Positions 695-35,692 are shown, counted from the stretch's first letter. The stretch is 64,000 bases of DNA from an uncultured Verrucomicrobiae bacterium (GCA_963707025.1 CAVPOM010000004.1:416001-480000), one strand, 5' to 3'. Notes: generated by a model from the letters alone, not told the origin. Numbers and translations: made by a program.

Positions 695-1832
695 ATGACT
701 CCGCGCGAACGCATTCTAGCCATCCTCCACCGCCGACCGGTGGACCGCCTGCCGGTGGACCTCTGGCACACGCCTGAAATCGGCGCGCTCTTGCGGCAGC
801 ATTGCGGCGTCGCGGATGACCTGGCGATGTATCAGGCGCTGGGCCTGGACAAGATTGTCTGGGTGTTCCTGGATTACCAGACCGCCGCCGGGGAACGCGC
901 CGGGGGGCAATCCGGCGCCGGCGCCGAGGACGGCGGCAGTCGCACCGTGTGGGGCGCGCCGCTCAGGGATATTCAGGCCGGCGCCGCGCGTTACGCCGAG
1001 TTTGGCGCCGCGCCGTTGGCGGGTTACGACACTCCCGAGTCATTGGCCGATTATCCCTGGTGGCCCAGCGTGGAGCGTTTCGATTACGACGGCGCGGTGG
1101 CAAAGGCGCGGCAGGCAGCGCAACATTTTGCCGTGATCGGGCCTTGGGTGTCGTTTTTTGAAATATACTGCCAGTTGCGCGGATTGGAACAGTCGCTGAT
1201 GGATCTGTTGGAAGCCCCGGAACTGGTGGAAGCGATTCTTGACCGCGTGGAGTCCATCCAGGCCGAAATGATGCGCCGTTTTTTAGCCCGTGCCTGGCAA
1301 GTCGCTCGATCTGGTTTTTATCAGTGACGACATTGCCGGACAGACCTCGCTCTTGATGTCGCCCGCCCTGTGGAAACGCCATTTGCGACCGCGGCTGCGG
1401 CGCTGGTGTGAGTTGATTCATGCCCATGGCTTGCGGGTTTTTTACCACACCGACGGCGCGGCGCGTCCTCTGCTGGGGCCGATTCTCGATTGCGGCGTGG
1501 ATGTGCTTAACCCGATTCAGCACGCCTGTCCGGGAATGGAAATGGAGGAACTCAAACGCGAGTTCGGCCAGCGGGTCGTTTTTCACGGCGGGGTGGACAA
1601 TCAGTTTGCCCTGCCGCGCGGCACTGCGGAGGACGTGTGCCGCGAGACTCGTCACTGCCTGGAAACCTTGGGCGCCGGTCGCGAGGGTTTCATTTGTTGT
1701 TCCTGCCACAACGTGCAGGCCGGCACCCCGCTGGGGAACATCCTCGCCATGATTAAAACTGTGCAAGACGCCTCCGTCCCCCAAAAGGCAAAGCCAAATG
1801 CTGGCGTCTTCCTCCGGACGAATACGCTTTGA
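695..1832 (+). CDS. uroporphyrinogen decarboxylase-fold (URO-D/MtaA-CmuA-like) protein, one frameshift near 1290
   Basis: MTPRERILAILHRRPVDRLPV N-terminus, LRGLEQSLMDL; second frame continues SDDIAGQTSLLMSP...FYHTDG...GVDVLNPIQ...FHGGVDNQ..LPRGT...SCHNVQAGTP. Confidence 0.8.
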
Positions 1833-2002
1833 AATGAATCGCGCGTCTGACTGCGGATCAGATCTCCATCAGGTGATTTTGCTCCAAGCCAATTATTCCA
1901 TGAAGCCGGCCCAGAGATCGAGCCGACCCGGATTAACCCTGGTGTTTTCCGTTGCTCTTTCATACAAATCGAGCTTGACTGGTGTTTATCTACAAGAGAG
2001 CC

Positions 2003-3012
2003 ATGATGCAGACCAAAGCTTCTTCGCCGCCCAAGCTCATGAGAGGGATGATTCCTATCCTGGCTTTTCTCCTTTGGCTTTGCCCCCGCGGTGCCTGGGC
2101 CGGTTCCAAATCCGCCGCTGATTCGGGGGGGCATTCAAAGTCAGTTTTTTGGAGTTGGAGTCGTCGCTGGAGGACACCTGCCGGATATTGACGAGGAGCG
2201 GCTTTCCCGATGCGACGGTCACGATCTTCAGGAAGCTCGTGAGGTTTCATAACCAGAACGGCAATCGGGTTGACCGGGCCAAGTTTCCACAGGCCCGCGG
2301 CGGCTATTATGAATTTCAAAATTTCGATGATTTTACCAACCGCTTGCAGTGCCCTTTGAGCAGGACGCCGGCAACCAATTCCATCCGGCAGAATACGTTA
2401 CAGTGTTTTGAAATGGTCTGCCTGCTGCTGCACGACGCGGGCTATGGAGTGCCGGCCCTGAAACAGGATTTCGAGTCAAAAGGCATCATGCTCCTGCGCA
2501 CGAACGGTTTGCTGGTTTCAGTTTCATATGAGGCGTGGTCTGGAGGTTTCCGATGGGTTCTGCCCTCTGAAAAGGATTATGAGTTTTTAGTTGGCCGGAC
2601 AATGAGCGAATCAGAGAGCCTCCTGAACCTGGGTTTTCGCGCCGCCCGGCGGACCGGCGATGCCGGACCGGATAACGGGGAAATATTCAGCAAATCATTT
2701 CCGGTTTTTGTCAGCGGGTTGCAACGGAGCGGCTTCGTCTTTCCGACGAAATTCAAGGTGGGCTTTGTGTTCGTCGCGCAGCCGTTTCATAATTATGTCT
2801 GGGCCGATCACGCATTCCTTTGTTTTTCCCAAGACGGAAAGTTGATTTGTCTCGAAAAGGCCGGCAGCCGCGGTCCCTATGTTCGGGCGGAATTCGGCTG
2901 CGCAGAAGATTTGGGGCACTTCGTATGTGAGGATTATTTAAGTGAACCCCGGAAATCCTCCTTGGCCGTCTCGCTTAATGACCGATTGATTGGCCTTTGG
3001 TCGCGCCAGTAG
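2003..3012 (+). CDS. hypothetical exported protein, probable frameshift at T-homopolymer near 2145-2150
   Basis: Signal-peptide-like MIPILAFLLWLCPRGAWA in one frame joins the 287-aa ORF 2149..3012; no recognisable family. Confidence 0.5.
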
Positions 3013-3176
3013 AAGTCTCGCTGCGAGCCGCCAAGCCAAAACGAAGAAGCGGCATCCCGCCTGGGTCCTCACGATTTCAACTGATTGAGAGTGGCGGACT
3101 TTGCGGCAGGCCAACAGAGGCCGCTAAAACCACATTGCCCTTGCGATCGCGTTCGCGCAACATCCCCCCAACTTAT

Positions 3177-5288
3177 ATGCGCTCATACAATCCATTTCGT
3201 CCCGGCCTCTTCGTGACCCTGGTGTTCGCCGCCGGAGTTGCCCTCGCGCAAGAGGCCAATCCATTTGGCGCTCCCAGCATCTTGCCGCTCCAGGCCCCCA
3301 GGTTTGATCAGATCAAAGACACCGACTACATGCCCGCGTTCGATGAAGGGATGAAACAACAACTGGCCGAGATAGATCGCATCGCCAACGATCCGGCGGC
3401 GCCGACCTTCGAGAATACGATCGTTGCCATCGAAACCTCCGGCCGCATGCTGGATCGCGTCTCCGAGACTTTCTCCGCTATTTACCAGGCCAACACCAGC
3501 GACACGTTGGACCATACCCAGACGGTGGAAGCGCCCAAACTTGCCGCCCAGCAGGATGCCATCTTCCTGAACGCCAGGCTCTTTGCCCGCGTCAAGGCCG
3601 TGTATCAAAGCCGCGAAAAGAAAAAGCTCGATCCGGAATCACAGAAACTCCTCAACGTCTATTACCTGCAATTCCTCCACGCCGGCGCCAACCTCCCCGG
3701 CGCGGACCAGGCCAAACTCCGCGAAATCAATCAACAAGCCGCCACGCTGGAAACCGCCTTCGAACAAAAATTGCTGGCCGCGGCAAAAGCGGGCGCGCTG
3801 ATTGTTGACACCAAATCCGCGCTCGCCGGCCTGACCGACGAGGAAATCGCCGCGGCCGCGCACACCGCCGAAACCCGCGGCCTGACCAACCAGTATTTGA
3901 TTCCGCTCCAAAATACCACCCAGCAGCCTTCCCTCACCGGGCTTTCCGACCGCGCCACCCGCGAGCTGCTCTTCCACCACTCATGGACCCGTGCCGAAAA
4001 GGGCGATACCAACGACACTCGCGAAACCATTCTCCAACTCGCCCGCTTGCGCGCCCAGAAAGCCCATCTGCTCGGCTATGGCAATTACGCTGAATATGTC
4101 CTCTACGACCAAATGGTAAAATCGCCCAAAGCGGTGGACAAATTCATCGGGCAACTCGTCCGTCCCACCGCCCTCAAGGCCGCCGACGAAGCCCGCCAAA
4201 TTCGGGCCATGATTGACAAGTCCGGCGCCCACTTTGACCTCAAGCCCTGGGATTGGAAACGCTATTCGGAAGCGGTCCGCAAAGAGAAGTATGACCTCGA
4301 CCAGGACGAACTGAAGCCTTACTTCGTCCTGGACAAAGTGCTGCAGGATGGCGTGTTCTACGCCGCCAATCAGCTTTACGGCATCACCTTGAAGGAACGC
4401 CACGACCTGCCCGTTTATCAGCCGGATGTCCGCGTTTTCGACGTCTTCGACCAGGACGGCGCGCAACTGGGTCTCATCTATTTCGATTACTTCAAGCGGG
4501 ACAACAAATCCGGCGGCGCGTGGATGAACAATCTCGTCCAGCAATCCCATTTGCTGGGAACCAAACCGGTGGTCTGCAACGTCGCCAATTTCCCCCAGCC
4601 TGCCCCCGGCCAGCCGGCCTTGCTGACTTTTGATGACGTCACCACCATGTTTCACGAGTTCGGCCATGCGCTCCACGGCCTTTTTGCCAGCGGGCAATAT
4701 CCCAGCCTCTCCGGCGCAAATACCGCCCGGGACTGGGTCGAGTTTCCATCCCAATTCAACGAGCATTGGGCGCTCTATCCCGCCGTCCTCAAACATTATG
4801 CCGTCAACTATAAGACCGGCGAGCCGATTTCCCAGGCCCTGGTGGACAAGATCAAGAAATCCCGGACCTGGGGACAAGGTTACGATCTGGGCGAACTTCT
4901 CGCGGCCTCCGAACTGGACATGCAATGGCATGAGATCGGCGCTGCCACGGCGGTGGGCGACGTTGATGCTTTTGAGCAGCAAGCCCTGGCACGCACCCAT
5001 ACCGACTTCCCCGACATCCCCTCCCGCTACCGCTCCAGTTATTTCCTGCACATTTGGGCCAATGGATATGCCGCCGGATATTACGCCTACCAATGGACCG
5101 TCATGCTCGATGACGATGCCTTTGCCTGGTTCACGGCGCATGGCGGCATGACCCGCGCCAACGGCCAGCGCTTCCGCGACCTGATCCTCTCGCGCGGCCA
5201 GACCCAGGACTACAGCGCCATGTTCCGCGCCTTCTATGGCAAGAATCCCGACATCGGTCCCATGCTGCAAGACCGCGGCCTCAAATGA
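3177..5288 (+). CDS. dcp: M3 family metallopeptidase (peptidyl-dipeptidase Dcp-like), signal peptide
   Basis: TMFHEFGHALH zinc motif, KSGGAWM, DWVEFPSQFNEHW, GYAAGYYAYQW. Confidence 0.9.
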   Translation: MRSYNPFRPGLFVTLVFAAGVALAQEANPFGAPSILPLQAPRFDQIKDTDYMPAFDEGMKQQLAEIDRIANDPAAPTFENTIVAIETSGRMLDRVSETFSAIYQANTSDTLDHTQTVEAPKLAAQQDAIFLNARLFARVKAVYQSREKKKLDPESQKLLNVYYLQFLHAGANLPGADQAKLREINQQAATLETAFEQKLLAAAKAGALIVDTKSALAGLTDEEIAAAAHTAETRGLTNQYLIPLQNTTQQPSLTGLSDRATRELLFHHSWTRAEKGDTNDTRETILQLARLRAQKAHLLGYGNYAEYVLYDQMVKSPKAVDKFIGQLVRPTALKAADEARQIRAMIDKSGAHFDLKPWDWKRYSEAVRKEKYDLDQDELKPYFVLDKVLQDGVFYAANQLYGITLKERHDLPVYQPDVRVFDVFDQDGAQLGLIYFDYFKRDNKSGGAWMNNLVQQSHLLGTKPVVCNVANFPQPAPGQPALLTFDDVTTMFHEFGHALHGLFASGQYPSLSGANTARDWVEFPSQFNEHWALYPAVLKHYAVNYKTGEPISQALVDKIKKSRTWGQGYDLGELLAASELDMQWHEIGAATAVGDVDAFEQQALARTHTDFPDIPSRYRSSYFLHIWANGYAAGYYAYQWTVMLDDDAFAWFTAHGGMTRANGQRFRDLILSRGQTQDYSAMFRAFYGKNPDIGPMLQDRGLK

Positions 5289-5463
5289 GCAATGGCTTGG
5301 CAGCCTTCCCCGTCGAGGTGGAGGGCCGGTTCTTTGCCGGCGCAAGCCGCGCCCCGCGAACGGATAACCCCGCACAAAGCGAACCTTCGAGCGGCGGCGG
5401 GCCTGGCTCTAACGTGCTCGCGGGCTTTCTGACCACAGGATGGCAGGATGCGGCGCGCCACAC

Positions 5464-5542
5464 CCGTTACACCGTTACACTCGTTGGCTTTGAGGGACTT
5501 ACGCAATTCATGCCCGTTACATGGCCGTTACACTCCGTTACA
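5464..5542. repeat. cluster of five CCGTTACA (TGTAACGG) motifs
   Basis: CCGTTACA at 5464, 5472, 5514, 5525, 5535; reverse-complement relative of repeats at 51973..52180. Confidence 0.75.
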
Positions 5543-5572
5543 GTGGCTGCGCTTGGCCGCATCCAGGCAGAG

Positions 5573-5606
5573 GAGAACCGCTGATGAACACGGATGGACA
5601 CGGATT
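5573..5606 (+). repeat. ACACGGATG-type 9-mer repeat unit, copy 1
   Basis: GAGAACCGCTGATGAACACGGATGGACACGGATT, 31/34 identical to 12123..12156. Confidence 0.7.
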
Positions 5607-5725
5607 CCAAGGCGCAGAAAAGGAGATTTCCCGTGCTCCTTTCGCTCAGGATTTGGCAGCTCTGCCCAGCCCCAGGAAAAAGCCCGTCATCGCCTTGCCT
5701 TATCCGTGTCAATGCAGTAGGAATT

Positions 5726-5876
5726 GGGGAGCGCACGCGCCCCCGCGTGCAGCCAACCGGCGCCGTCGCCGGTTGGTCTTGCGTTTCCGGTTGGACGGAA
5801 GGGTGGGGAGAATTTGAGCGGTGGGCTGTCGTTGGCGAGGCGCCAACCACCGCACGCGAGGGCGCGTGCGCTCCCC
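5726..5876. repeat. REP/REPIN-like inverted repeat element between convergent genes
   Basis: GGGGAGCGCACGCGCCCCCGCGTGC (5726..5750) pairs 24/25 with 5852..5876; internal hairpins. Confidence 0.75.
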
Positions 5877-5956
5877 GCGCAACTGCATCGTTCCGGCTTG
5901 GGTGGCCGCCAGGAATTGCCGGTGAATCTGAGCAACGAGGTTATTCGAGCCACCTT

Positions 5957-6910
5957 TTAACGGGGGGGGCCACCGGGCGGGCCGGATGAATTGGGCTTGA
6001 GCGACTGGCTCTGGTTGAACTGATCCATCACCTGGCGGATGGCGCGCGTATGTTCGGCGGTGCTGCCGCAGCAGGAACCGACAATCATCGCCCCCGCCGC
6101 CAGAACGCCGGGCAAGGCAATGACCATGTCGGCGGGAGATTGTTTGTAAACGGCTTTCCCGCGTTCCAGAACCGGCAGGCCGGCGTTGGGCTGCACCATC
6201 GCCGGCAGTTGGCAGTGCGCGCGATAAATCCCCGCCACCATGGCCGCGCCCGTCATGTCCATGCCTGTCCCGCAATTCAAGGCCGCAAAGTGCGCGCCTT
6301 TTTCCTCCGTGAATTCGGCGGCTCTTTCTGGCAACACTCCCATCATCGTCACGTAAAATGTCTTGTCCGCCGACAAATCATAAGCCAGCGAAGCAATGAT
6401 GCTGCGCGCTCCGGCAGCTTTGGCGGCGTCAATGGCCAGGCCCAGTTCCTCCAGCGAGGTCTGCGTTTCGATAATGATCGCATCCACGCCGCCCTCAACC
6501 AGCGCCGAAGCTTGTTCCTCCAGGGCAAGCTGTGCTTCCGCTTGTGAAAGCTCGCCGTACGGTTCCAAAATGGCGCCGACCGGCCCGATGTCGCCGAGCA
6601 CATATCCCGCGCGCCCGCCAAAGGCCTCCCGCGCGATGCGGGCAGCGGCTTGGTTGATGGCGCGCGCGTCCCTGGCCGCGCCATGCCGTTGCAGAGAAAT
6701 GCGGCTGCCGCCGAAAGTGTTGGTGATGAGGCAATCCGCCCCCGCCTCCGCATAGCGCCGCTGAATGGCCAGGACCCGTTCCGGCTGGGTGAGATTCCAA
6801 AGCTCGCCGCATTGGCCGCTCTCCAAGCCGGCCAGCATCAATTGCGTGCCCATCGCCCCATCGCAGACAAGCCGGCGCTCGCGCACCATTTCATGAAGCA
6901 GTTTTTGCAT
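5957..6910 (-). CDS. stand-alone homocysteine S-methyltransferase (MetH Hcy-binding domain)
   Basis: DGAMGTQL, EAGADCLITNTFG, IIIETQ, AALNCG, QPNAGLP, VGSCCGSTAEHTRAI (Zn-binding Cys triad). Confidence 0.9.
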   Translation of the reverse strand: MQKLLHEMVRERRLVCDGAMGTQLMLAGLESGQCGELWNLTQPERVLAIQRRYAEAGADCLITNTFGGSRISLQRHGAARDARAINQAAARIAREAFGGRAGYVLGDIGPVGAILEPYGELSQAEAQLALEEQASALVEGGVDAIIIETQTSLEELGLAIDAAKAAGARSIIASLAYDLSADKTFYVTMMGVLPERAAEFTEEKGAHFAALNCGTGMDMTGAAMVAGIYRAHCQLPAMVQPNAGLPVLERGKAVYKQSPADMVIALPGVLAAGAMIVGSCCGSTAEHTRAIRQVMDQFNQSQSLKPNSSGPPGGPPR

Positions 6911-7040
6911 GGTCAGCAACGCATTATTTCCCGCCAGTTGACCTCGCCGCAACAGGGAGGTCAGCCACAGAGTAGATAGGGTTTTGCCGCCCCCGGCACA
7001 AGCCCCAACTTCCCAAAATCCCCAAATCAGGCGGGCTGGC

Positions 7041-7298
7041 TGAGGGTACCTCGATTTGACGGACAGAGAATCGGGTGAACAATGAAAGGAAAAGCCCATG
7101 AAAGAAGCATCTGTCCCAGAGCGCCGGAAATTCGACCAAACATTCAAACGCGAAGCGGTTCTGAACTGGCTCCCTAGGGGCAAGTCCGCGACGGTGGTGG
7201 GGGAGGAGCTGGGCATCACCGCCAACCTGCTTTACGCTTGGAGATATTCAGCCCGTTTATTTGCCGGAAATGGTTGTCAGTGTGGCAATTGTGGCTGA
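7041..7298 (+). mobile_element. IS3-family remnant: left end plus truncated OrfA (7098..7298)
   Basis: Starts TG (TGAGGGTACCTCGATTTGACGGACA); RRKFDQTFKREAV...VGEELGITANLLYAWR HTH; no OrfB integrase-core ORF follows. Confidence 0.7.
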
Positions 7299-7440
7299 TC
7301 CGAGAAATCATCCGATTTCCTTTGACTTGGCTCCCAAACTCTCGTAAATTCATTTGATGGAAGAGACGCGCAGTCGGTGGGCGCATTGATCTCGGCACCA
7401 TTGTTTATGCTGCGTCAGCATACGCCGATAATATGGTGTA

Positions 7441-7689
7441 ATGGCGAGAGAAAAGAATATGAAAATCACTTTTGACAAAAGCGCGCGCGCTTTCGTCCTG
7501 GATGCTTTTGGCAAAACGGCCAAAGACGGGTTTGTTGTTGAAAAATCCAATACCGCACAAAAAGTTCTTACCCCAAGAGGCGAGGAGATCCCGGTGCAGG
7601 AATTTGCGGGTGTGCGGAAGGGTTCCGCCATATTCGTCAAATCTGACATTGTTTCATTGGTTGAAGCTGCTGAATCCATGAAGCCGTGA
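7441..7689 (+). CDS. small hypothetical protein (82 aa), AT-richer cassette gene 1
   Basis: Clean ORF 10 bp upstream of 7700 ORF; atypical codon usage. Confidence 0.65.
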   Translation: MAREKNMKITFDKSARAFVLDAFGKTAKDGFVVEKSNTAQKVLTPRGEEIPVQEFAGVRKGSAIFVKSDIVSLVEAAESMKP

Positions 7690-7699
7690 CCAGCCCCTG

Positions 7700-8518
7700 A
7701 TGAATATTTTGGAAAAGCTGAAGGCCGTTGGACTTTATTTTCCAAAACTCAAGAGTGTTTCCCTTTTCAAACTGTCCCTCAATATTGACAAGTCAATTCA
7801 TGTTGAGCGGTCAACAGTCACAATTAACCCTAAGAAGCTAAATGGTAAACAAAAGCGGGCGTTAATGGAAATCATTCGCGGCGAGGCTTTGGATTCTGCG
7901 GGTTTGATTTTGGATGAGGAAAAAGCGCCAACGGTTGAGCAGGTCATTCATGCTTTACAGGGCATCCATGAAGTAGAAGATAAATTTAAGCCTATCATTC
8001 CTTCTTCTGATATTCCCCTCCTAAAGGCCTGTGTCTATCTGCGCCTTAAATTTGAGCAAGGCGAATGTGTGGACGCACTGAAGGCGCAAATCATGCGTGT
8101 ATATGGGACGCGGGGCGGAAATTTTGCAAATTTGTGCTCTGCTGGATATTTGGAAACCTGGTTCCTGCCGCTTTACGATGAACTGCTGCGAGCCAATCCT
8201 GATAATCCCCTTTTGGCAAAGGCTAAATTTGTTTCGCTTTACAATAACATCTTGAGTGAATTGCCCTGGACCGAATTTGTATCTGCCCGTGCGAGTGCAG
8301 CCAAGATTACCGCCCACATCGTTGAAAAAATGAATCGCAATATTGCTAATGGCGTTCGCTTCTTAAACATTCACGGTCTTGGCGAGGGGAATGTGGAGAA
8401 AATACGTGGTCTGCTTTTTGATCTCCAAAGGCAGACTGGAGCTTTGGCTGTTCAGGTTGATAGGGACCGTTATCGGATTTTTGTTCGACTGGAAATTCCT
8501 CCTCAAATTACAAATTGA
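7700..8518 (+). CDS. hypothetical protein (272 aa), AT-richer cassette gene 2
   Basis: Long ORF in AT-richer DNA; C-terminal FLNIHGLGEGNV segment. Confidence 0.75.
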   Translation: MNILEKLKAVGLYFPKLKSVSLFKLSLNIDKSIHVERSTVTINPKKLNGKQKRALMEIIRGEALDSAGLILDEEKAPTVEQVIHALQGIHEVEDKFKPIIPSSDIPLLKACVYLRLKFEQGECVDALKAQIMRVYGTRGGNFANLCSAGYLETWFLPLYDELLRANPDNPLLAKAKFVSLYNNILSELPWTEFVSARASAAKITAHIVEKMNRNIANGVRFLNIHGLGEGNVEKIRGLLFDLQRQTGALAVQVDRDRYRIFVRLEIPPQITN

Positions 8519-8794
8519 CCTTTTATCTTAGGGCCAGCCGCCGTGGTTTCGGATATCCACTTGGCTACGACTGTATTTTGGAGTGGCCCAAGCCATTTCC
8601 CCACTAGATTTCCAATGGAAGATTTCATCAAGCATAGATTTTATGAATTGAGGCGGGAGGGCATAAAGCACCTTGCTTGCCAACTTTGTGAAAGACCTGA
8701 ATTTATCTCAAATTAGGCCACTACCCAAAGTTGCGTGCAGGAGCGGGTTGAGCCATGATGTTCGAGGCCCGAACTAAATGACACCAGCAGTTGC

Positions 8795-10462
8795 ATGAGC
8801 GTCGAGTTGCATTTCAATCAACAGCACACGTGTGTTGCGCCCGGGCCGTCGCTGTTCGACTGCGCCGAAGCGCTCGGCATCAAGGTCCCCACTTCCTGCC
8901 GCAAGCAGGGCAAATGCAAGGAATGTCTGGTGGAAATCACCGAGGGAATGGAGTTCCTTTCGGGCAAAGGGCCGGAGGAAAAGCATCTCCGGGAAAACTT
9001 CCGTCTCTCCTGCCGCTGCCACATGGTCAAGGATTGTGGCGCGGTGCGATGCCATACCCTGCGGCGGGGCGACATGCGCATCGAACGCCACGCCCTGCAA
9101 CTTCCCACCACCGGCCAAAAGTTGCCGCTTGATCCCGCCGTCACCCGCGACGGTGAGCGCATTCTGCTGGACGGAATGGAAATTGATCGTGGCGGCGGAC
9201 CGATCCACGGGCTGGCCATGGACCTGGGAACCACCACCGTCGTCCTGCGCCTGCTCAACTTGGAAACCGGCGAAATCGTGGCGGACGCATCCTTCGAAAA
9301 TCCGCAACGCTTCGGCGGCTCCGATGTGATGTCGCGCATCCATTACGACACGGAGGACGGCAGCAAATTGCTGCAGCGCACTCTGGCCGGTTACATCACC
9401 CATGCCATCGAGGACTTTCCGGCGGACCCGAAATCCATCTACGAAGTGGTCGTCGCCGCCAATTCCACCATGCGCGATCTTTACTTTGGATTGAATGTCC
9501 ATTCCATCGGGCAAAGCCCCTATCAATCCATCACCGAGTTGGAAATGGGGCAAGGCCGGCGGACCACGACCAGTCTGGCCGCGCCGGCCGGGCGATTGTG
9601 GCTGCCGATTCATCCCAAGGCGCGCGTTTATGGGTTGCCCGTCATTAGCGGCCATGTCGGCGCCGACGCCGCCGCCTGCCTGCTGGCGGTGGATCTGGCC
9701 AACGAAGAACGGCTCGTGGCCCTCATGGACATCGGCACCAATACGGAACTGATCCTCGGCAACCGGCACAAAATCCTGGCGGCGTCCTGTCCCGCCGGCC
9801 CGGCCTTCGAAGGCGGCAAAATTGCCTGCGGCATGCCGGGTCTGCCGGGCGCCATTGAAAAAGTGGCGATTGACCCGGACGGCTCCCTGCGGGCACAAGT
9901 CATCGGGGGCGGCGCGGCGGAAGGGATTTGCGGTTCGGGGCTGATAGATCTCTTGAGCGAACTGCTCAAGACCGGGCGCATGAACTCGCTGGGGCGTTTT
10001 GAGGCCGGCGGGGAACCGTTTGTGCTGGAGGCCGGGAGCGAGCGACCGATTTGCCTGACGGAGGGCGACGTCAACGAACTGGCCCAGGCCAAGGGCGCCA
10101 ACGCGGCCGGGCTGCACGTTATGTTTGACAGATACGGCATTCGCTTCGACGACCTGGCCGTTTTCTACCTGGCGGGCGGTTTTGGCCGGCATCTCAGCCT
10201 GGCGGCCTCCAAACGCATCGGGCTGATACCCGACCTTGACGAGGCAAAAATCCTGCAAGTGGGCAACGCCTCCATTGAAGGCGCCAGTCTGGCGCTGCTG
10301 TCGCGCGCCAAACGCGCGGAGTTGGAGAAGCTGGTCAAACGTGTCACCCACTGCCGCCTGGAAACGCACCCTGACTTTTTCCATTACTTTGTGGAGGGGT
10401 GCCAGTTCAACCCCATCACCTCGCTGGCGGCGCCAAACCCGCCCGTCTTGAATGCGATTTGA
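8795..10462 (+). CDS. ASKHA-type ATP-dependent reductive activator of corrinoid proteins (RACo/DUF4445) with N-terminal 2Fe-2S domain
   Basis: CRKQGKCKEC...RLSC ferredoxin; DLGTTT, DIGTNTE, CPAGPAFEG, GICGSG, YLAGGFG motifs. Confidence 0.9.
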   Translation: MSVELHFNQQHTCVAPGPSLFDCAEALGIKVPTSCRKQGKCKECLVEITEGMEFLSGKGPEEKHLRENFRLSCRCHMVKDCGAVRCHTLRRGDMRIERHALQLPTTGQKLPLDPAVTRDGERILLDGMEIDRGGGPIHGLAMDLGTTTVVLRLLNLETGEIVADASFENPQRFGGSDVMSRIHYDTEDGSKLLQRTLAGYITHAIEDFPADPKSIYEVVVAANSTMRDLYFGLNVHSIGQSPYQSITELEMGQGRRTTTSLAAPAGRLWLPIHPKARVYGLPVISGHVGADAAACLLAVDLANEERLVALMDIGTNTELILGNRHKILAASCPAGPAFEGGKIACGMPGLPGAIEKVAIDPDGSLRAQVIGGGAAEGICGSGLIDLLSELLKTGRMNSLGRFEAGGEPFVLEAGSERPICLTEGDVNELAQAKGANAAGLHVMFDRYGIRFDDLAVFYLAGGFGRHLSLAASKRIGLIPDLDEAKILQVGNASIEGASLALLSRAKRAELEKLVKRVTHCRLETHPDFFHYFVEGCQFNPITSLAAPNPPVLNAI

Positions 10463-11764
10463 CATGCTGGAACTGTTCGACACCCACCCGGACTGCCAGG
10501 TGCAGGAATCCGAATTCAAACGCCTGCTGGGCTATCCGCCGCGTCATAATCTGGAGGGACGCGCCCGCGAAATCGCGGAGGCGAGCCGGCAGTGGTATGT
10601 CCAATTCGGCCGGCCATGGATTTACGCGCGGCAGGCGGAAGGGCTGGAACTGTCCGGCAGCCAGATTAAAATCAACGGCGCCGCCTTCTCCTCCGCCCCG
10701 CTGCACGAGCAATTCCACACGGCGCAAGTTCACAGCGCGCTGCTGCTGGCCGTGAGCGCCGGCCCGCAATGCGAAGAAAAAGCGCGGGCCTTTTGGCAGG
10801 AAGGAAAGCCCGACGAATACTTCTTCATGGAAATGTTCGGCTCGGCCGTGGTGGAGCATTTGGTCGCGGTCGCCAACGGCCGCCTGTGCGCCTGGGCGGA
10901 CCAACAAGGGATGGTCGCGCTGCCCCATTACAGTCCGGGTTATTCGCGGTGGGATGTCCGCGAGCAAACCAAATTGTGGGACCTGATCCGCCCGGAGGCG
11001 GGCGGCAAATTTGCCGGCCAGCTCGAGGTGTTGGACACCGGCATGCTCCGGCCCAAAAAGTCGCTTTTGGCCGTCGTCGGCCTGACGCGCCACTTGGACA
11101 AGGTGCGGTCCTACGCCAGGCTGGTGCCGTGCGAAAACTGCTCCTTGTCCGGCTGCCAGGTACCCGGCGCGCGCCCTTCGAGCATTTTCCGCCGCAAATT
11201 GAAGAGGTCGTCCGGCTCCAGCCCGGCGGTGAGGAAGCTTTATCCCCGCCCAACGGCAAGGTCCTGGCGTTGAACCATCAGGCCAAGTATTCCATTAACG
11301 GCAAAGCCTTGCGCAAATGGTCGCAGGAGCGCCTGCAATTAAAGTCCTTGCCAGACGGCGCCGTTGAGGCGCGGTTCCGCTACGAAGGCACCACTTGCTC
11401 AAACCTGGGCCGCCTCCTTGAATTCGACTATCTGGTGCTGCTGGCGCCGGGACACGACCGCTATAAAATTGTGGCGGCCTCGTGCGTCCCTGCGCCCGGC
11501 GACACCGGCCACACCTGGCAATGCGAATATCTGGAGGACCCCGCCTCCTTCCTGCGCGCCATCGCTGAGGAAAGGCCGCTGCTGGGCCGCCCGCTCGACG
11601 ATGTCCTGGCCTGGGAGCGCGCCTGGCGCCCGTCGGGCTGCTACTGCGACGCCGAGCGGCGCTTCCATAAATGGGGCCTGGTCTTTGAGGTGATTCACTA
11701 CGCCCTGGTGGAGCGCGAGAAAGCCGCGGCCAATCCTCGACAGCCGGACCGGGTTTTGGAATAA
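10452..11764 (+). CDS. B12-dependent methionine synthase activation-domain-like protein with Cys-rich C-terminal extension; frameshift near 11160
   Basis: HYSPGYSRWDVREQ and GMLRPKKSL resemble the SPGY and M-x-P-x-KS motifs; CENCSLSGC, CSNLG, QCEY, GCYC downstream. Confidence 0.7.
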
Positions 11765-11778
11765 ATAATCCATCCTTT

Positions 11779-12105
11779 ATGACTCAATTGTGCAGCATTG
11801 ACACGACGGCGCTACAAAAACTGCCGCCCGCTTTCCCGGAAAAATCCGGCATTGGCGCGCATTACACCGACGCCTTCATCAAACCGATGAACACCAAACT
11901 GGCGGATGGCACGCGCGTTTCCTGCAAGCGCAAAGGCTTGAAGATAATCCTGGTGGTCGGCGCAAAAAAAGGCGAAGGGTTGATGCGCCGGCTGGAGGTG
12001 AGCCGGGACCCGGTGGTGATGTTAAAGGCCGCCTTGCAGGAGGCGGCCAAAGCCGCCGGCGTTGAGTTGCAAATCACCGGCAGCGAAATCCTGGTCGCCC
12101 CCTGA
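11779..12105 (+). CDS. hypothetical protein (108 aa) in RACo operon
   Basis: ORF 14 bp after the previous stop, host-like codon usage. Confidence 0.65.
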   Translation: MTQLCSIDTTALQKLPPAFPEKSGIGAHYTDAFIKPMNTKLADGTRVSCKRKGLKIILVVGAKKGEGLMRRLEVSRDPVVMLKAALQEAAKAAGVELQITGSEILVAP

Positions 12106-12122
12106 GCCGCAGCCATGGGGAA

Positions 12123-12156
12123 GAGAACCACGGATGAACGCGGATGGACACGGATT
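12123..12156 (+). repeat. ACACGGATG-type 9-mer repeat unit, copy 2
   Basis: 31/34 identical to 5573..5606; again between convergent genes. Confidence 0.7.
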
Positions 12157-12333
12157 TACCGGCACAGAAGAGCGGGTTTTACGTTGTTTTACAAGAACGA
12201 GCCTTCAATTACTTTTGGCTGCATCGCCGGCGCGCAGCCACTGACCACATGATAGAGCGCCGGGATGTCTCCCACATTGCGCCAAGCCGGCATCTTTCAA
12301 ACCGCTCGCCGCGGCGTCCGAAAAATCCAGCCG

Positions 12334-13317
12334 TCAGGGAAACCTCGCCTCCATCTCATTTTTGACAGCGGCGGCGACTTCGGCGGGCGTGCCGGGACGC
12401 TCGGCTTCTTGGCCCCAGCGCAAGTGCGCCATGTAAGAGTCGGCCTGGATCAATCCTTGTTTCTGCGCCGAGAGATCAATGTGTTCGGCGAAACGGTTGT
12501 CGAGATTGAGCTTGATTTCGTCGAAGTCATCCCAGGCTTTGACTTGCGAGGGGATGTCCTGCCAGTAGAGCACTTGATATTTCGATTTGGCGCCGGGCGG
12601 ACGCGCCGCCCGCGCTTCTGCCCGTGCGGCCATGACCGGGGCCAGCGCTGCCATTTTGGTTTTATGGACTGGAGCGGCGCCTTTGCCGACAAAATACAGA
12701 AACAGATCCACCGCGCTGGAAGCGTCCGCCCCGTAGCCGTCGGCGCCGATTTCGTCCGCATACATCTGGCTGATGGGCGCGCCGCCGATGGCCATTTTGA
12801 TGTGGCCGAGGCCTTTCGCCTCAAAGCCGTCAATCACCACCTTCATATAAGTCATCGTCGTGGTCAGCAACGCGCTCATGCCGATGATGTCCGGCCGGTG
12901 CCGCTCGGCGGCGGCGAGGAATTTATCGAGGCTCTGATCCGCCCCGATGTCATGCACCTGGAAACCGGCGCCCTCGGCCATCATGCAAACCAGATTTTTT
13001 CCAATGTCATGCAAATCGCCGCGCACTGTTCCCATGAGCACCGTTCCGGCCGACGAACTGGCGGCGCCCCGGGCGGTCAGGAGCGGCTTGAGCACGGCCA
13101 TGCCGGCCTTCATGGCGCGGGCCGCGATGAGCACTTCGGGCACGTAAAGCACATTATATTTGAAATCCTCCCCCACCACGCTCATGCCGGCGATCAGCCC
13201 TTCGCTCAGGATTTCCTGCGCGCTCCGGCCCTCGGCCAACGCGTCGCGGGTCATTTGTTCGACCTGCACGGCCTTGCCCTCGTAAACGCACTGATTCATT
13301 AAAGCGTAGTCCGGCAT
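12334..13317 (-). CDS. corrinoid (cobalamin-binding) protein with cap domain, fused to C-terminal Virulence_fact-like domain
   Basis: YVPEVLIAARAM cap, GDLHDIGKNLV (DxHxxG), SALLTTT, IGGAP..IGADGY; C-terminal YWQDIPSQV...RFAEHIDLSA. Confidence 0.9.
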   Translation of the reverse strand: MPDYALMNQCVYEGKAVQVEQMTRDALAEGRSAQEILSEGLIAGMSVVGEDFKYNVLYVPEVLIAARAMKAGMAVLKPLLTARGAASSSAGTVLMGTVRGDLHDIGKNLVCMMAEGAGFQVHDIGADQSLDKFLAAAERHRPDIIGMSALLTTTMTYMKVVIDGFEAKGLGHIKMAIGGAPISQMYADEIGADGYGADASSAVDLFLYFVGKGAAPVHKTKMAALAPVMAARAEARAARPPGAKSKYQVLYWQDIPSQVKAWDDFDEIKLNLDNRFAEHIDLSAQKQGLIQADSYMAHLRWGQEAERPGTPAEVAAAVKNEMEARFP

Positions 13318-13341
13318 GGGTGCTTGCTTTTCCGAAACGGG

Positions 13342-14388
13342 TCAGCGTTTGGAATTAAATTCCTCCAGAGCTTGCAGCATCGCCCGGATGTTCTCGCGCG
13401 GCATGCCCGGACTCGTGCCGCCGCCGACGGACAGCACGATCCCCTCGCCGCCGCTTTTTTCCAGAACGTCCAGGGTGGCCGCGCGCACTTCCCCGGGCGT
13501 GCCGCGCACGCCCACTTCCAGCGGATTCACATTTCCCATCAGGCACATGCGGCCGCCGACGCGCGCCTTCACTTCGGCGTAATCGGTTTGCTTTCCCCAG
13601 TTCAGCATGTTGAACCCGGCGTCCGGCAGATGATCCAGGCAGGCCCCGACCTCCGCGTCGTTGTGATAGAGCTTGACCCAGTCCTTGGGAAAGGCGTCGC
13701 AGATTTTTTTCAGGCGGGGATGGGCGAATTCCAGGTAGTGCTCCTCGTTGACGAAGCCAACAATGTCGTCGAGAATGAAAATGCCCTCCACCGTGCCGCC
13801 CATGGCTTTTTGCTGGGCCTTGAGCCAGTCAATAATGAGATTGGTGCAAAGGTCGAGCAGTTTGTGCGCCCACTCCGGTTTTTCCACCAGATCAATCATG
13901 AAATCGGTCGTGCTGCGGACGAAGCCGGCGGTACACATCGGGCCGCGCGAGGTGACCAGGGGCAGAATCTCACCGGTGTCCAGGATGCGCTGGCGCTGCA
14001 TGCGGATGCGGTGCAGGGTCATGGCCATGAAGGCGTCGTTTTCCACCTCGTATTCCGGGAACCTCTCGATGTCCTCAATATGAAAGAGGGTGTGGTATTC
14101 GCTGGGCGTGTTGTCCTGCCAGAATTTGATCTTGGCGCCCAGAGCCGACGGTTCCGCCGCCATGCCGTATTCCATCCACCAGGAAGGGACAAAGATGATG
14201 TCGGGGAATTCCCGGTGAATTTTCAAGTGCGACTGGAACCACAATTCCGGGTCGAGGTAGAAATCCATGTGCTTAAGGCCGAGATAACCGGGAATCCACG
14301 GACTGTCCACGATCAGGGCCATCGGCACCTTGTCCAATTTCTCCAGGCGCGAGGCCCGTTTAAATATGTCCCATTGTTCAGGTCTCAT
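13342..14388 (-). CDS. URO-D/MtaA-CmuA-fold methylcobamide methyltransferase candidate
   Basis: ILDDIVG, LYHNDA, CLMGNVNPL..RGTPGEV, SVGGGTSPGMPRENIRAM; directly upstream of corrinoid gene. Confidence 0.85.
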   Translation of the reverse strand: MRPEQWDIFKRASRLEKLDKVPMALIVDSPWIPGYLGLKHMDFYLDPELWFQSHLKIHREFPDIIFVPSWWMEYGMAAEPSALGAKIKFWQDNTPSEYHTLFHIEDIERFPEYEVENDAFMAMTLHRIRMQRQRILDTGEILPLVTSRGPMCTAGFVRSTTDFMIDLVEKPEWAHKLLDLCTNLIIDWLKAQQKAMGGTVEGIFILDDIVGFVNEEHYLEFAHPRLKKICDAFPKDWVKLYHNDAEVGACLDHLPDAGFNMLNWGKQTDYAEVKARVGGRMCLMGNVNPLEVGVRGTPGEVRAATLDVLEKSGGEGIVLSVGGGTSPGMPRENIRAMLQALEEFNSKR

Positions 14389-14675: not shown

Positions 14676-15533
14676 TCATACCACAGCCACGGTGTTTTGC
14701 AGGACGCCGATTCCGGTGATTTCGATGCCGACCACATCCCCGACTTGCAAGGTGAAGGCGGCTGGGGGGACGATGCCGGTTCCCGTCAATAACACTGCCC
14801 CATGGGGAAATCTCTGGCAGCGAAAGAGGAAGGAGGCCAGTTCCTCGAAACGGCGTTTGATCTGGGCCACGGAAGTTTCGCCCGCGAAAACAGGCTGTCC
14901 GTCGCGGCGGATTTCCAGCCGAATGGTCCACTGTCGCGCCTCGGCTTCGGTCGCGCCAAGCGTAATCCACGGACCCAGGGCACAGGAACGGTGGTAGGTT
15001 TTGGCCTGGGGCAAATACAACAGATTCTCCCCTTCGATGTCCCGCGAACTCATGTCGTTGCCTATGGTGTAACCGGCGATCTTCCCCTTGGAGTTGAGCA
15101 CCAGGGCCAGTTCCGGTTCCGGCACATTCCAGCGGGCGTCGCTGCGGATGCCCACTTCATCGCCGGTGGCGGCCACTTTTTCGGCCAGCGATTTGAAGAA
15201 GATTTCCGGGCGTTCCGCCGAATAGACCTTGTCATAGGCGGAGGCGCTGAAATCGGATTCCTCCATGCGCGCGGTTTTGCTGCGGAGGTAAGTAACGCCG
15301 GCAGCCCAGACTTCCTGCCGTTCGACCGGCGCGCATAATTGAACCTCAGAAAGCGAAACGTGGGGAAGAGGCGCGTACTTTGCGAGAAGCGGCGGCAGAT
15401 CAGGATTGTCCAGTTCCAGCAATGGTTGCAGTTGGGTGACACCGGCTGGAGTCAAGTCGAGCACCGTCGCATCCTCGTTGACCAATCCCACCTTGATCTC
15501 CCCGGCTTGGTTTTTAAAGCGGCAGATTTTCAT
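14676..15533 (-). CDS. fumarylacetoacetate hydrolase family protein, 2-keto-3-deoxy-pentonate dehydratase (XylX)-like
   Basis: QEVWAAGVTYLRS, ERPEIFFK, WNVPEPEL, GNDMSSRDIEGENLLYLPQAK, LLTGTGIVP. Confidence 0.85.
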   Translation of the reverse strand: MKICRFKNQAGEIKVGLVNEDATVLDLTPAGVTQLQPLLELDNPDLPPLLAKYAPLPHVSLSEVQLCAPVERQEVWAAGVTYLRSKTARMEESDFSASAYDKVYSAERPEIFFKSLAEKVAATGDEVGIRSDARWNVPEPELALVLNSKGKIAGYTIGNDMSSRDIEGENLLYLPQAKTYHRSCALGPWITLGATEAEARQWTIRLEIRRDGQPVFAGETSVAQIKRRFEELASFLFRCQRFPHGAVLLTGTGIVPPAAFTLQVGDVVGIEITGIGVLQNTVAVV

Positions 15534-15541: not shown

Positions 15542-16819
15542 TCACGGCGCCATCGCCACGGGCGGACTGGCGGGATGCTTTTGTTTCGGCAGCAAAAAGG
15601 CAAGCCCGACGCACACCAGCATCCCCGCGCCCAGCGCGTCGAAGGCGATGGCCGTGCTGTTATATTGCCTGACCAACCAGCCCACCACATAAGGTCCGGC
15701 GAAGCCGCCCAGGTTGCCGAAAGCATTGACCAGTCCCGTGACCGATCCCATGACGTTGGCGGGCAGGGTCTCGCTGACAATGGCCCAAAAGGGAGCCATG
15801 CCGGCAAAGGGTCCCGGTATGGCCAGGCAGAGGAAAGCGTAGGAAACCCAAAAATGCCCGCGCAAGGCGACGCTGAGAATCAGGCTCAGGCCGCTCATGG
15901 CATACATGGCCGCAACGTGGGTTCGGCGCTCCTGGGTTTTGTCGGAGTGCCAGGAGTTGAGGATCATCACCAGGGCGGTCACGACGTAGGGAACGGCGAA
16001 CAGAATTCCGTACTGCGTGGCGCTGTAACCCCGGTCCTGCAGGCGGTCGGTGAAGAAGGTCATGCATCCGTACGCGGCGCAATTGTGCAGAAAATAAAGC
16101 GCAATCATGACGAAGATGGACGGCTCGAAGAATCTTTTCCAGGCCGGTGTTTTTCGCGGAGGCTCCACTGCGGCCGCTTCCTTTTGCAGCGTCGTTTCCA
16201 GAAAATTCCGTTCTTCCGGCGAAATCCAATGTGCCTCGGCGGGATGATCTCGAATGACCATCCACCAGAGTGGAAGCCAGAGAAACGGCAGGATGCCCTC
16301 GGCCATAAGCATGGTCTGCCAGCCATAAGCTCCGAGCAGCCATCCGGTCACCGGCGCCGAACCGGCCACGGCCAGGGGCTGGCAAAGCTGCCACGCGGCG
16401 TTGGCCCGCGCCCGTTCGGCGCGTGGAAACCAATTGGCCAGCAGGACGAGCGTCGCCGGAAAAACGGCGCTTTCCGCCACACCGAGCAAAAAGCGCATGG
16501 CCTCAAATTGCCGGAAGGTCCGGGCCAGCCCGCAGCCCATGGCGCAAAGGCCCCAACTGACCAGGCAGAGGCTGACGACCTTGCGAGCGCTCCAGCGCGA
16601 CGCGAGCCAGCCGCCGGGAATTTGCAGCAGGAGGTAACCGAAGAAGAATATGCCCGCCGCTTCTCCTTTCATGGCGGCATCCATGTGCAGGTCCCGCAGC
16701 ATGGTGGAGACGTGAGGATCAGGATCCAGGGAGAGGGAGATGTTGGTGCGGTCCACATAGGAGATGGTGTACATGATCAGCGCGACGGGAATGATGCGCA
16801 GCCAGCGTTGTTGCTTCAT
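15542..16819 (-). CDS. MFS transporter (ACS family, sugar-acid type)
   Basis: ISYVDRTNI, FFFGYLLLQIPGG, RFLLGVAES, WFPRAERARA; multiple TM helices. Confidence 0.9.
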   Translation of the reverse strand: MKQQRWLRIIPVALIMYTISYVDRTNISLSLDPDPHVSTMLRDLHMDAAMKGEAAGIFFFGYLLLQIPGGWLASRWSARKVVSLCLVSWGLCAMGCGLARTFRQFEAMRFLLGVAESAVFPATLVLLANWFPRAERARANAAWQLCQPLAVAGSAPVTGWLLGAYGWQTMLMAEGILPFLWLPLWWMVIRDHPAEAHWISPEERNFLETTLQKEAAAVEPPRKTPAWKRFFEPSIFVMIALYFLHNCAAYGCMTFFTDRLQDRGYSATQYGILFAVPYVVTALVMILNSWHSDKTQERRTHVAAMYAMSGLSLILSVALRGHFWVSYAFLCLAIPGPFAGMAPFWAIVSETLPANVMGSVTGLVNAFGNLGGFAGPYVVGWLVRQYNSTAIAFDALGAGMLVCVGLAFLLPKQKHPASPPVAMAP

Positions 16820-21202: not shown

Positions 21203-21446
21203 GCGCCATTCCCCGTCCTCGGGCGCAGCAGCGCGGGAAACACGGCGCGCCGGTAATCTTCCTGCGCACCCAAAAAATCCCCGGCTTGCTGCCGCCGGGG
21301 ACGGCCGCACTCCGCCAGCAACAGTGTCAAGCTGCGCCCCCCGCTGCGCGGGGAGAAAGCAGATTGGCTTGCTCATCGGGTTATTTCTTGAAAAGAGAAG
21401 AGATAGCGCGCATCCATCCTTTTGCACCGCCTCATATATGACGCAA

Positions 21447-33213: not shown

Positions 33214-33256
33214 ACAAGCCAAAATCCATATCTCAACTTCTAAAGGGTAATTGGTT

Positions 33257-35692
<2,436 letters not shown>

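Follow-up and report, generated by a model that had tools for sequence, protein, structure and literature searches.

Does a set of genes for corrinoid-dependent methyl transfer, lying close to genes for glucuronoxylan degradation, act on the methyl group that decorates this polysaccharide? The question is raised by a stretch of 64,000 nucleotides from an uncultured Verrucomicrobiae bacterium (the window), for which an initial annotation had proposed a folate-free module that moves the methyl ether of methylglucuronate, or of another O-methyl sugar, to cobalamin and then to homocysteine. Methylglucuronate decorates much of plant xylan. A full-text literature search, with most subscription journals outside it, returned no enzyme that takes off this methyl group and no paper describing corrinoid-dependent demethylation of methylglucuronate or of any other methylated sugar; passages of two reports (PMC5217386, PMC12076931) contain nothing on what becomes of the methyl group.

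The real unit consists of six genes between positions 5,957 and 14,388 (Table 1) and is a vitamin-B12-dependent methyl-transfer cassette kept in bacteria of several phyla. It contains the corrinoid protein, RACo, MetH-activation-like protein and stand-alone homocysteine methyltransferase named in the initial annotation, which had missed the PF13769 domain at the C-terminus of the corrinoid protein and the conserved 108-aa gene. Of the two URO-D proteins assigned to the module, only the one adjoining the corrinoid gene belongs there. A low-GC insert (7,014–8,768) lies inside the cassette span. The surroundings also differ from the first description: an FAA-hydrolase gene separates the cassette from the MFS gene said to abut it; YjhG and UxuA genes are both present, but with an insertion sequence in between and a divergent "UxuA"; and the order from the module is GH30 (14 kb), CE15 (19 kb) and GH115 (21 kb), not the reverse. 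An Rfam search of positions 1–46,000 returned only a tRNA, with no cobalamin riboswitch at the gathering score, and promoter and terminator counts were at chance level.

Table 1 Features of the cassette and its context
Feature	Position	Strand	Basis
URO-D/MtaA-fold protein, 348 aa, predicted substrate:corrinoid methyltransferase (MT1)	13342..14388	-	PF01208 E 5e-39
Corrinoid protein, cap and B12-binding domains, fused PF13769	12334..13317	-	domain profiles
108-aa conserved protein without known family	11779..12105	+	57/80 loci; 63-82% identity in 30 aligned copies
MetH-activation-like protein with cysteine-rich C-terminal domain	10452..11764	+	TM0269 (1j6r) match; 54/80 loci
RACo ATP-dependent corrinoid reductive activator, N-terminal 2Fe-2S domain	8795..10462	+	PF14574, PF17651, PF00111; 52/80 loci
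Stand-alone homocysteine methyltransferase, cobalamin-dependent MetH type	5957..6910	-	PF02574; NCG and CC motifs present
FAA-hydrolase-family protein (context), same strand as URO-D, upstream	14676..15533	-	PF01557; 4/80 loci
Sugar-acid-type MFS transporter (context)	15542..16819	-	best NCBIfam match TIGR00893, under cut-off
YjhG/YagF xylonate dehydratase (context)	17182..19152	+	TIGR03432 above cut-off; 6/80 loci
Divergent UxuA-like dehydratase (context)	21438..22574	+	PF03786; 10/80 loci
CE15 glucuronoyl esterase, GDSL domain fused (context)	33251..35692	+	PF22244, PF13472
GH115 alpha-glucuronidase (context)	35565..38639	+	PF15979 E 1e-139
Second URO-D paralogue (H-T-D, S-C-H-N), separate unit, downstream of GH78	695..1832	+	frameshifted near 1,300

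The cassette URO-D is 82–93% identical across several phyla, and its model lies nearest to MtaA of Methanosarcina mazei (4ay7; Z 32.7, rmsd 2.9 A over 328 residues, 23% identity), the closest solved fold. H242-N-D244 and G-G-G align with H-I-C and G-C-G of MtaA, placing a glycine (G322) where MtaA has its last cysteine. The predicted metal site thereby shows what is described for O-methyltransferases of the superfamily, in which one or both cysteines are swapped for carboxylates or non-ligands (PMC10418091), and the His-x-Asp site fits an O-methyltransferase. The H-T-D and H-N-D motifs were correctly read at the outset, and the same source supports the view that H-x-D points to a substrate other than a thiol. 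Type 1 mlp clusters likewise combine URO-D, corrinoid protein and RACo without a THF methylase; however, MtaA and type 1 Mlps have a His-Cys-Cys site, act on thiols or selenols and come with two or three Mlps per cluster, whereas the cassette has His-Asp-Gly and one URO-D (PMC10418091). Assignment to these S-methyltransferases, with at least two Mlps per cluster, is not supported, and TIGR01463 gives 99 of 235.4 bits. Nor does the protein class as HemE uroporphyrinogen decarboxylase (TIGR01464, 59.3 of 302.95 bits; G-G-G aligned with the C-terminal G-H-G), and a much stronger PF01208 match lies on another contig (C5) of the same genome. MtaB (PF12176) gave no match in this genome or in the 80 cassette loci.

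In the predicted complex, the URO-D sits against the cobalamin face of the corrinoid protein. As proposed at the outset, the complex of the two proteins was modeled and scored 0.75, compared with 0.00 for the best of three controls; the mark for a pass was reached by 116 of 157 solved pairs and 2 of 215 mismatched pairs, and the pass here may reflect likeness to already solved complexes. The runs share at least 84% of contacts, with a partner pLDDT of at least 91 and corrinoid residues 103–105 among the contacts. The corrinoid protein has the DxHxxG motif as D101-x-H103-x-x-G106 and scores 182.6 on NF047996, under the cut-off of 370.

RACo gave one tblastn match in the genome, the only copy found there. 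A frameshift near 11,150 interrupts the activation-like gene, which has two extra bases compared with two relatives; most relatives encode a single protein of 407–458 aa. The protein has no Pfam match, nor has any of 39 members; its assignment comes from the model of an intact relative, residues 1–208 of which match TM0269 (1j6r; Z 20.0, rmsd 2.2 A, 194 residues, E 3.6e-9), while the C-terminal domain, searched as part of the whole model, gave only Z 6.6 or less. The 108-aa protein has no Pfam, NCBIfam, PDB or Atlas assignment. The best solved match of the homocysteine enzyme is Thermotoga maritima MetH (E 2.7e-40; MmuM 7e-9, BHMT 5.5e-7), and an orthologue is present in 15/17 genomes carrying the cassette and 2/84 others. 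The cassette thus resembles the split MetH of T. maritima (1q7m, 1j6r) in these two best matches; in the Thermotoga protein, however, the folate domain is fused, whereas the cassette lacks this domain and has a further cysteine-rich one on its activation-like protein.

Among the 80 cassette loci, the corrinoid gene adjoins the URO-D in 79 and the homocysteine enzyme is present in 43. A pterin-binding gene is absent from the window, as first stated, and the three PF00809 matches of the genome lie on other contigs. A cassette-type pterin-binding MT2, which would pass the methyl to THF, gave no match in this 88%-complete genome; a pterin-binding protein on contig C15 was rejected as the missing MT2 because its best match is DHPS, with none to the cassette MT2. 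The label "folate-free" therefore holds for this genome but not for the kind, because 30/80 loci have a pterin-binding methyltransferase and 31/80 MTHFR. Pterin and homocysteine modules occur together in 16/80 loci, and the cassette pterin enzyme is absent from 14/17 carriers. Judged from its gene content, homocysteine would be the acceptor in this genome, in line with the original proposal. A full MetH lies on contig C6 and is kept in 16/17 carriers; the cassette is therefore not a MetH substitute. The host encodes haem-copper oxidases. CobS was not found in the 88%-complete genome and, therefore, B12 is likely imported.

The cassette often adjoins genes that release methylglucuronic acid from xylan. 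GH115, GH67 or CE15 lies within 10 kb in 21/80 cassette loci (GH115/GH67 in 11, CE15 in 15; UxuA/UxaC in 15), compared with 0/80 paralogue loci and 1.5% of 6,588 windows of the same genomes; restricting both sets of loci to those of at least 10 kb gives 20/68 and 0/31. A conservative count of 13 leaves out eight CE15-only loci with GH28, mostly a CE15-GH28 pair, in two subtrees, and one GH67 match (L066) is not a full called gene. By our count on a quick tree, the GH115/GH67 loci sit in six separate parts, and GH115, GH67, xylanases and uronate catabolism recur as neighbors over separate subtrees. GH115 is present in 14/17 carrier genomes compared with 14/84 others, a comparison in which p-values overstate the case because a single collection supplied both sets and related genomes are not independent. 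Thus, the check for co-occurrence and synteny proposed in the initial annotation turned out in its favor. Neither GH115 nor GH67 is present in 3/17 carriers, and 59/80 loci, many of them short, have none of the three families in the available DNA. In several loci a UxuA-like gene immediately precedes the gene for the URO-D or for RACo, and 16 of 17 relatives with this UxuA-like gene also have GH115 or GH67. The UxuA-like protein scores 115 of 199.55 bits, under the NCBIfam cut-off; that it is a specialist duplicate was rejected, no canonical UxuA being found in 101 relatives.

From this context we suggest, giving the proposal about an even chance, that the cassette URO-D takes the 4-O-methyl from methylglucuronate, or from the first product made of it inside the cell, for transfer to cobalamin and on to homocysteine. 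By analogy with known families, a metal held by His242/Asp244 would activate the ether oxygen, Co(I) of the corrinoid protein would take the methyl, the MetH-type enzyme would hand it to homocysteine to give methionine, and RACo, using ATP, would restore oxidized cobalt together with the activation-like protein. Because the methyl is traceable only to methionine in this genome, the role is likely methyl salvage; the further claim that demethylation frees the sugar for catabolism is doubtful here because methionine can absorb little methyl and a close URO-D orthologue is missing from 14 of 28 relatives with GH115. Where a relative also has a methyl-THF transferase and MTHFR, and sometimes PurU, the methyl would be oxidized in bulk. 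Against demethylation of a sugar ether, aliphatic ethers donate methyl groups poorly, B12 would probably have to be imported, and two genes are frameshifted in the assembly (near 1,300 and 11,150), at sites not among the indels listed for four DNA runs.

Four-component O-demethylases of anaerobes act on aryl methyl ethers, with THF as acceptor. The cassette shares their stand-alone DxHxxG corrinoid protein and RACo, as well as the carboxylate-substituted UroD MT1 of OdmB/VdmB systems from Acetobacterium dehalogenans and related bacteria (PMC10418091), supporting the O-demethylase-like architecture; a pterin MT2, as in these systems, occurs in 30/80 homologous loci. It differs in the homocysteine acceptor, a host with haem-copper oxidases and an inferred aliphatic sugar ether substrate. 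A second parallel is MtgBCDE of Ruegeria pomeroyi and Phaeobacter inhibens, described as a glycine-betaine demethylase and split methionine synthase that drains to THF (MtgD, MetF2) or homocysteine (MtgE) (PMC12478193). There too an aerobe has a single corrinoid hub, loaded by a substrate-specific methyltransferase and served by a RamA-type activator, and separate corrinoid, homocysteine and RamA-type modules are all present in the cassette. In contrast to MtgBCDE, the MT1 is of URO-D fold and not PF06253 (none among 47 window proteins scanned), DUF1638 is absent from the 80 loci, activation-like and 108-aa proteins are added, carriers keep MetH, this genome has no pterin module and the context is glucuronoxylan, not betaine (PMC12478193).

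The main rival, which we consider unlikely, is that the URO-D is a new methanol:corrinoid methyltransferase, salvaging methanol set free by the UxuA-like enzyme from 3-O-methyl-mannonate or by esterases. On chemical grounds, elimination in the dehydratase step could release the 4-O-methyl, positioned beta to the carboxylate, as methanol, which also counts against a sugar-ether substrate, and Enterobacter asburiae JDR-1 reportedly sets methanol free from methylglucuronate. The position of the UxuA-like gene and its tracking of alpha-glucuronidases agree with this, while the CE15-GH28 pair and GH28 in 11/80 loci point to pectin methyl esters. However, UxuA of either type was not seen in 10/17 carriers, and no pectinesterase (PF01095) was found among the neighbors scanned (102 of 189 single-occurrence proteins of the 80 loci, and cluster representatives). 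Moreover, in one relative (G020) methanol use goes with canonical MtaB and the same homocysteine enzyme, which favors the sugar ether, and a methanol enzyme has no reason to favor xylan over pectin loci. It is less probable still that the methyl comes from some other methylated fragment of the plant wall, for example the methyl ester of a uronic acid or a different O-methyl sugar, or that the enzyme takes several donors. As a leaving group a carboxylate would far surpass a sugar alkoxide, and CE15-GH28 pairs, GDSL/SASA esterases, apiosidase-like and arabinofuranosidase genes recur; yet the neighbors shared by separate subtrees are those of xylan and uronate breakdown, with GH28 in two subtrees only and rhamnosidases in 0/80 loci.

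We see little prospect for an aryl-methyl-ether O-demethylase whose substrates (ferulate, vanillate or pieces of lignin) would be released from xylan by CE15 and feruloyl esterases. CE15 cleaves lignin-carbohydrate esters, and one BD-FAE gene adjoins GH115 in locus L107. Characterized URO-D-fold O-demethylases, OdmB and VdmB, use phenolic ethers (PMC10418091). However, aromatic-catabolism or aromatic-transport clusters do not recur among annotated neighbors, which are sugar-acid transporters and dehydratases. Slightly more improbable again is an ordinary split methionine synthase in which the URO-D has a different role and lies near xylan genes by chance, the outcome named at the outset as refuting. 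Homocysteine, corrinoid and activation modules are all MetH-like, some loci pair pterin and homocysteine modules, and split synthases are known (PMC12478193). Against this, carriers keep full MetH, unlike most MtgBCD genomes (PMC12478193), and most lack the cassette pterin enzyme. In addition, no other gene is as conserved as the URO-D, for which docking on the corrinoid protein is predicted, and the association with xylan genes is a feature of this URO-D subfamily specifically.

The cassette is a concrete, purifiable candidate for methylglucuronate demethylation with a short substrate list. If the proposal is true, corrinoid O-demethylation extends from aryl to sugar ethers, the decay of plant walls in soils and peat becomes linked to the demand for B12 and the supply of methionine, and a large family now mislabeled "uroporphyrinogen decarboxylase" (2,419 clusters at E 1e-50 or better) gains a function. 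A methanol donor would still define a new methanol methyltransferase family. The genome has two orphan URO-D paralogues, one by a rhamnosidase and one by pectin lyases. The former, at 695, reads in two frames compared with an intact 359-aa relative, and an M3 peptidase and a hypothetical gene lie between it and the cassette. None of the 16 relatives' loci contains this paralogue, nor does any of the 80 cassette loci; the loci of its own relatives have RACo, the homocysteine enzyme or GH115/GH67/CE15 in 0/80, and GH78/GH106 in 11. It is a separate, rhamnosidase-linked paralogue outside the cassette. For the latter (C16), a conserved pectin link was rejected, its 43–58% identical relatives lying in mixed contexts. 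With somewhat less confidence than in the proposal for this genome, we suggest that the cassette may be a cobalamin-dependent, oxygen-independent demethylase for the glucuronoxylan 4-O-methyl in soil, peat and freshwater bacteria of several phyla, feeding methionine or folate pools, and that the rhamnosidase- and pectin-lyase-linked orphans may be interchangeable MT1 modules for other methylated wall sugars, sharing the single RACo.

The cassette is a six-gene unit comprising a homocysteine methyltransferase, RACo, a MetH-activation-like protein, a 108-aa protein, a corrinoid protein, and a URO-D-fold protein, the predicted MT1. Each of the module parts named in the initial annotation was present in the window. 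By scanning species-representative genomes, we obtained at least 592 relatives of the cassette URO-D among 599 stretches and kept the best 80 (82-93% identity; 44 of these loci are at least 19 kb), in which genes were counted by tblastn at fixed score thresholds. Across the best 80 of at least 592 loci, the other cassette genes were detected as follows: corrinoid protein, 79 loci; 108-aa protein, 57; activation-like protein, 54; RACo, 52; homocysteine methyltransferase, 43. The first URO-D, GH78, and the peptidase had no match in any of these loci, and we therefore no longer place both URO-D proteins in one module as had been proposed. The loci bear the labels Verrucomicrobiota, Bacteroidota, Ignavibacteria, Gemmatimonadales, KSB1, and Acidobacteriota, some of which are possibly binning errors. 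Among 101 related genomes, 17 (hereafter, carriers) contain an orthologue of at least 79% identity, the next-best match lying at 50%; these genomes and the 80 loci share one source collection and are not independent sets.

Features of the window, from the ORF listing and family scans
Feature	Position (nt)	Strand	Remarks
GH78	ends 490
First URO-D-fold gene	695-1,832		after GH78; split over two frames
Hypothetical gene, then M3 peptidase			between first URO-D and homocysteine methyltransferase
Homocysteine methyltransferase	5,957-6,910	minus
Insert	7,014-8,768		between homocysteine enzyme and RACo; its ORF 44% GC; missing from a same-genus relative; bridged by one contig
272-aa ORF	7,700-8,518		within the low-GC insert; no Pfam family
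RACo, activation-like, and 108-aa genes	8,795-12,105	plus
Cys-rich C-terminal domain of activation-like protein	11,150-11,764
108-aa gene	11,779-12,105	plus
Corrinoid gene	12,334-13,317	minus	converges on RACo/activation-like/108-aa genes
Cassette URO-D	13,342-14,388	minus	converges on RACo/activation-like/108-aa genes
FAA hydrolase, MFS, YjhG, insertion sequence, divergent UxuA, regulators			upstream of cassette URO-D
DDE transposase (PF01609) with DUF6788 gene	19,318-21,202		between YjhG and UxuA-like gene; absent from a same-genus relative
Divergent UxuA-like gene	21,438-22,574
Two prepilin N-methylation genes flanking an 859-aa protein and GH30	24,618-25,442, 25,781-28,360, 30,792-31,766		859-aa protein: no Pfam family, shares a domain with GH30 (45% by BLASTP)
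GH30, acetyl xylan esterase, CE15, GH115, GH8, GH10, GPH symporter, GH3	14-31 kb off
GH3	43,023-45,259		broken into several frames; one of many assembly breaks
DDE transposase (PF01609)	46,453-47,682

In structural comparison, the model of the cassette URO-D (pLDDT 88) has MtaA as its nearest match (Z 32.7, rmsd 2.9 A over 328 residues), followed by a HemE (Z 31.0). Alignment of H-I-C and G-C-G of MtaA with H242-N-D244 and G-G-G, respectively, demonstrated the replacement of H-x-C by H-x-D first read from the sequence, and D207, D208, H242, and D244 are invariant across 20 orthologues. As outlined by Kountz and Balskus (PMC10418091), S-methyltransferases of the UroD superfamily have His-Cys-Cys while in O-methyltransferases one or both Cys are replaced. 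The predicted complex of the URO-D with the corrinoid domain (residues 1-212) scored 0.75 vs 0.00 for the best of three controls; 116 of the 157 solved pairs and 2 of the 215 mismatched ones reach the mark for this score. The value of 0.75 may stem from likeness to solved complexes. With contact agreement of at least 84% between runs, partner pLDDT of at least 91, and predicted contacts that include corrinoid residues 103-105, at the cobalamin histidine, the prediction supports binding of the URO-D to the corrinoid domain. The homocysteine enzyme belongs with the cobalamin-dependent, MetH-type methyltransferases, and the activation-like protein resembles TM0269 in its N-domain. Its Cys-rich C-domain (also at locus L031:2099-3397), with invariant C311, C353, C392, C394, and H411, is missing in a same-genus relative and some others, gave no clear match in a fold comparison, and is possibly a metal or iron-sulfur site. 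The Lys/Arg-rich 108-aa protein, nearly constant in length and with invariant Cys5, His28, and Cys49, is mostly encoded directly 3' of the activation-like gene, and a family look-up found none.

The window's genome has three PF00809 matches (on contig C18, in a full MetH on C6, and in a DHPS-like protein on C15), none of which fits the cassette-type MT2, the pterin-binding methyl-THF transferase, or MTHFR; MTHFR-family genes other than the cassette type are present. The window thus holds a version of the cassette without the folate branch, and the description of the module as folate-free stands for this genome but not as a general trait: in the best 80 of at least 592 loci, MT2 was found in 30, MTHFR in 31, the amidohydrolase in 23, and PurU in 5, with the homocysteine enzyme present without MT2/MTHFR in 26 and with MT2 in 16. 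Because MT2, MTHFR, PurU, and the homocysteine enzyme vary over these loci, we regard the acceptor side as modular, as it likewise is in MtgBCDE (PMC12478193). By genome, the homocysteine enzyme was found in 15/17 carriers vs 2/84 others, and cassette MT2 in 3/17 carriers. The cassette does not replace MetH, which is present in 16/17 carriers, the lone exception being a genome 64% complete. Neither MetE nor CobS was found in the window's genome (88% complete), which encodes haem-copper oxidases. The amidohydrolase follows MTHFR and MT2 in its 23 loci (e.g. the L061:13985-15271 region and L075:6794-8107). At L003:1381-3405, a gene for a DHPS-like pterin-binding protein and one for an EgtD-like methyltransferase converge, each scoring below its NCBIfam cut-off.

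The anticipated co-occurrence of the cassette with the alpha-glucuronidases GH115/GH67 and the glucuronoyl esterase CE15 was borne out. GH115 or GH67 was found in 11 of the 80 cassette loci, CE15 in 15, and either in 21, compared with 1.5% of 6,588 overlapping 21-kb windows of the window's own genome; dropping eight CE15-only loci that also have GH28 leaves 13/80. As a second control, loci of the first URO-D's relatives (best 80 of 197 metagenome relatives) had no GH115/GH67/CE15 and no UxuA/UxaC; these are shorter in total (0.68 Mb vs 1.33 Mb), and among loci of at least 10 kb the counts are 0/31 vs 20/68 for the cassette. UxuA or UxaC occurs in 15/80 and xylanases in 11/80 cassette loci, and rhamnosidases in 11/80 control vs 0/80 cassette loci. 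GH115 was present in 14/17 carriers vs 14/84 others and, inside the window's family, in 13/14 vs 6/17, all co-occurrence tests being inflated by related genomes. Neither GH115 nor GH67 was seen in 3/17 carriers, and half of the GH115-positive genomes are without a close cassette URO-D orthologue. In a quick tree, the GH115/GH67 loci fall in six separate parts by our count, with three or four phylum labels. UxaC of the window's genome (L210:7017-12145; G000:C18, about 623,000-626,400) adjoins an MFS-DUF805 transporter, an orthologue of which flanks the cassette in two relatives.

GH115 frees methylglucuronate, the 4-O-methylglucuronate of xylan, and sugar-acid transporters import sugar acids. 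We suggest that methylglucuronate released by GH115 would be taken in by such a transporter and held by the URO-D at an oxygen-preferring metal site, that its methyl group would pass to Co(I) of the corrinoid protein and on to homocysteine via the MetH-type enzyme, and that RACo and the activation-like protein would restore oxidised cobalt, which would be relevant in an aerobe. Whether methylglucuronate is the substrate we judge about evenly balanced. The cassette operates like MtgBCDE and the four-component O-demethylases but lacks a defining feature of each; a full-text literature search returned no description of it and none of a methylglucuronate demethylase, and we conclude that the cassette is a genuine and widespread variation on a known design, so far undescribed and directly testable. 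Hardwood xylan has ~1 methylglucuronate per ten xyloses, and a gram of cells needs about 0.15 mmol methionine and about 14 mmol xylose. Because the methyl supply exceeds the methionine sink several-fold in a rough balance of these general values, we prefer methyl salvage over a gate to glucuronate catabolism as the reading of the cassette in this genome, in place of the earlier idea that demethylation frees the sugar. Versions with MT2, MTHFR, and PurU could support bulk flux.

We also considered that the cassette could collect methanol. Because the methyl ether is beta to the carboxylate, a dehydratase could expel the methyl group as methanol, and the UxuA-like gene tracks alpha-glucuronidases closely, with GH115 or GH67 in 16/17 relatives having a copy of at least 63% identity; yet UxuA of either kind was unseen in 10/17 carriers, a pectinesterase search of the scanned neighbour proteins returned none, and a relative pairing the same homocysteine enzyme with methanol has canonical MtaB. 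A uronate methyl ester or an aryl ether is a possible donor with less contextual support than the methyl ether of methylglucuronate. The UxuA-like clade is a candidate for eliminating methanol from 3-O-methyl-mannonate, and none of the 101 relatives yielded a canonical UxuA. Canonical MtaB and a corrinoid protein are encoded in Verrucomicrobiota genomes at loci L211:9908-15099 and L187:12599-13978; in L211 they adjoin the same homocysteine methyltransferase, a gene pairing that suggests methanol-to-methionine transfer.

Intact relatives of the first URO-D are about 355-360 aa, and 3 of their 80 loci (best 80 of 197) have a corrinoid gene, one as a corrinoid-URO-D fusion. The first URO-D is probably an enzyme of its own, MT1-like and acting on a rhamnose-linked methyl group, that would use a corrinoid protein and the single RACo in trans. 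Similar breaks affect UxaC and CE8 genes in other parts of this assembly as well as the GH3 of the window, so the frameshifts in this gene and in the activation-like gene suggest sequencing errors. Elsewhere in the window's genome (L050:9616-11082; G000:C16, about 147,600-149,100), a second corrinoid gene and a URO-D gene with H-x-C and G-C-E motifs face each other. This pair, without its own RACo, has a pectate lyase, a GDSL esterase, and GH28 as neighbours and a CE8 fragment some 10 kb off, and relatives of its URO-D lie in mixed gene contexts.
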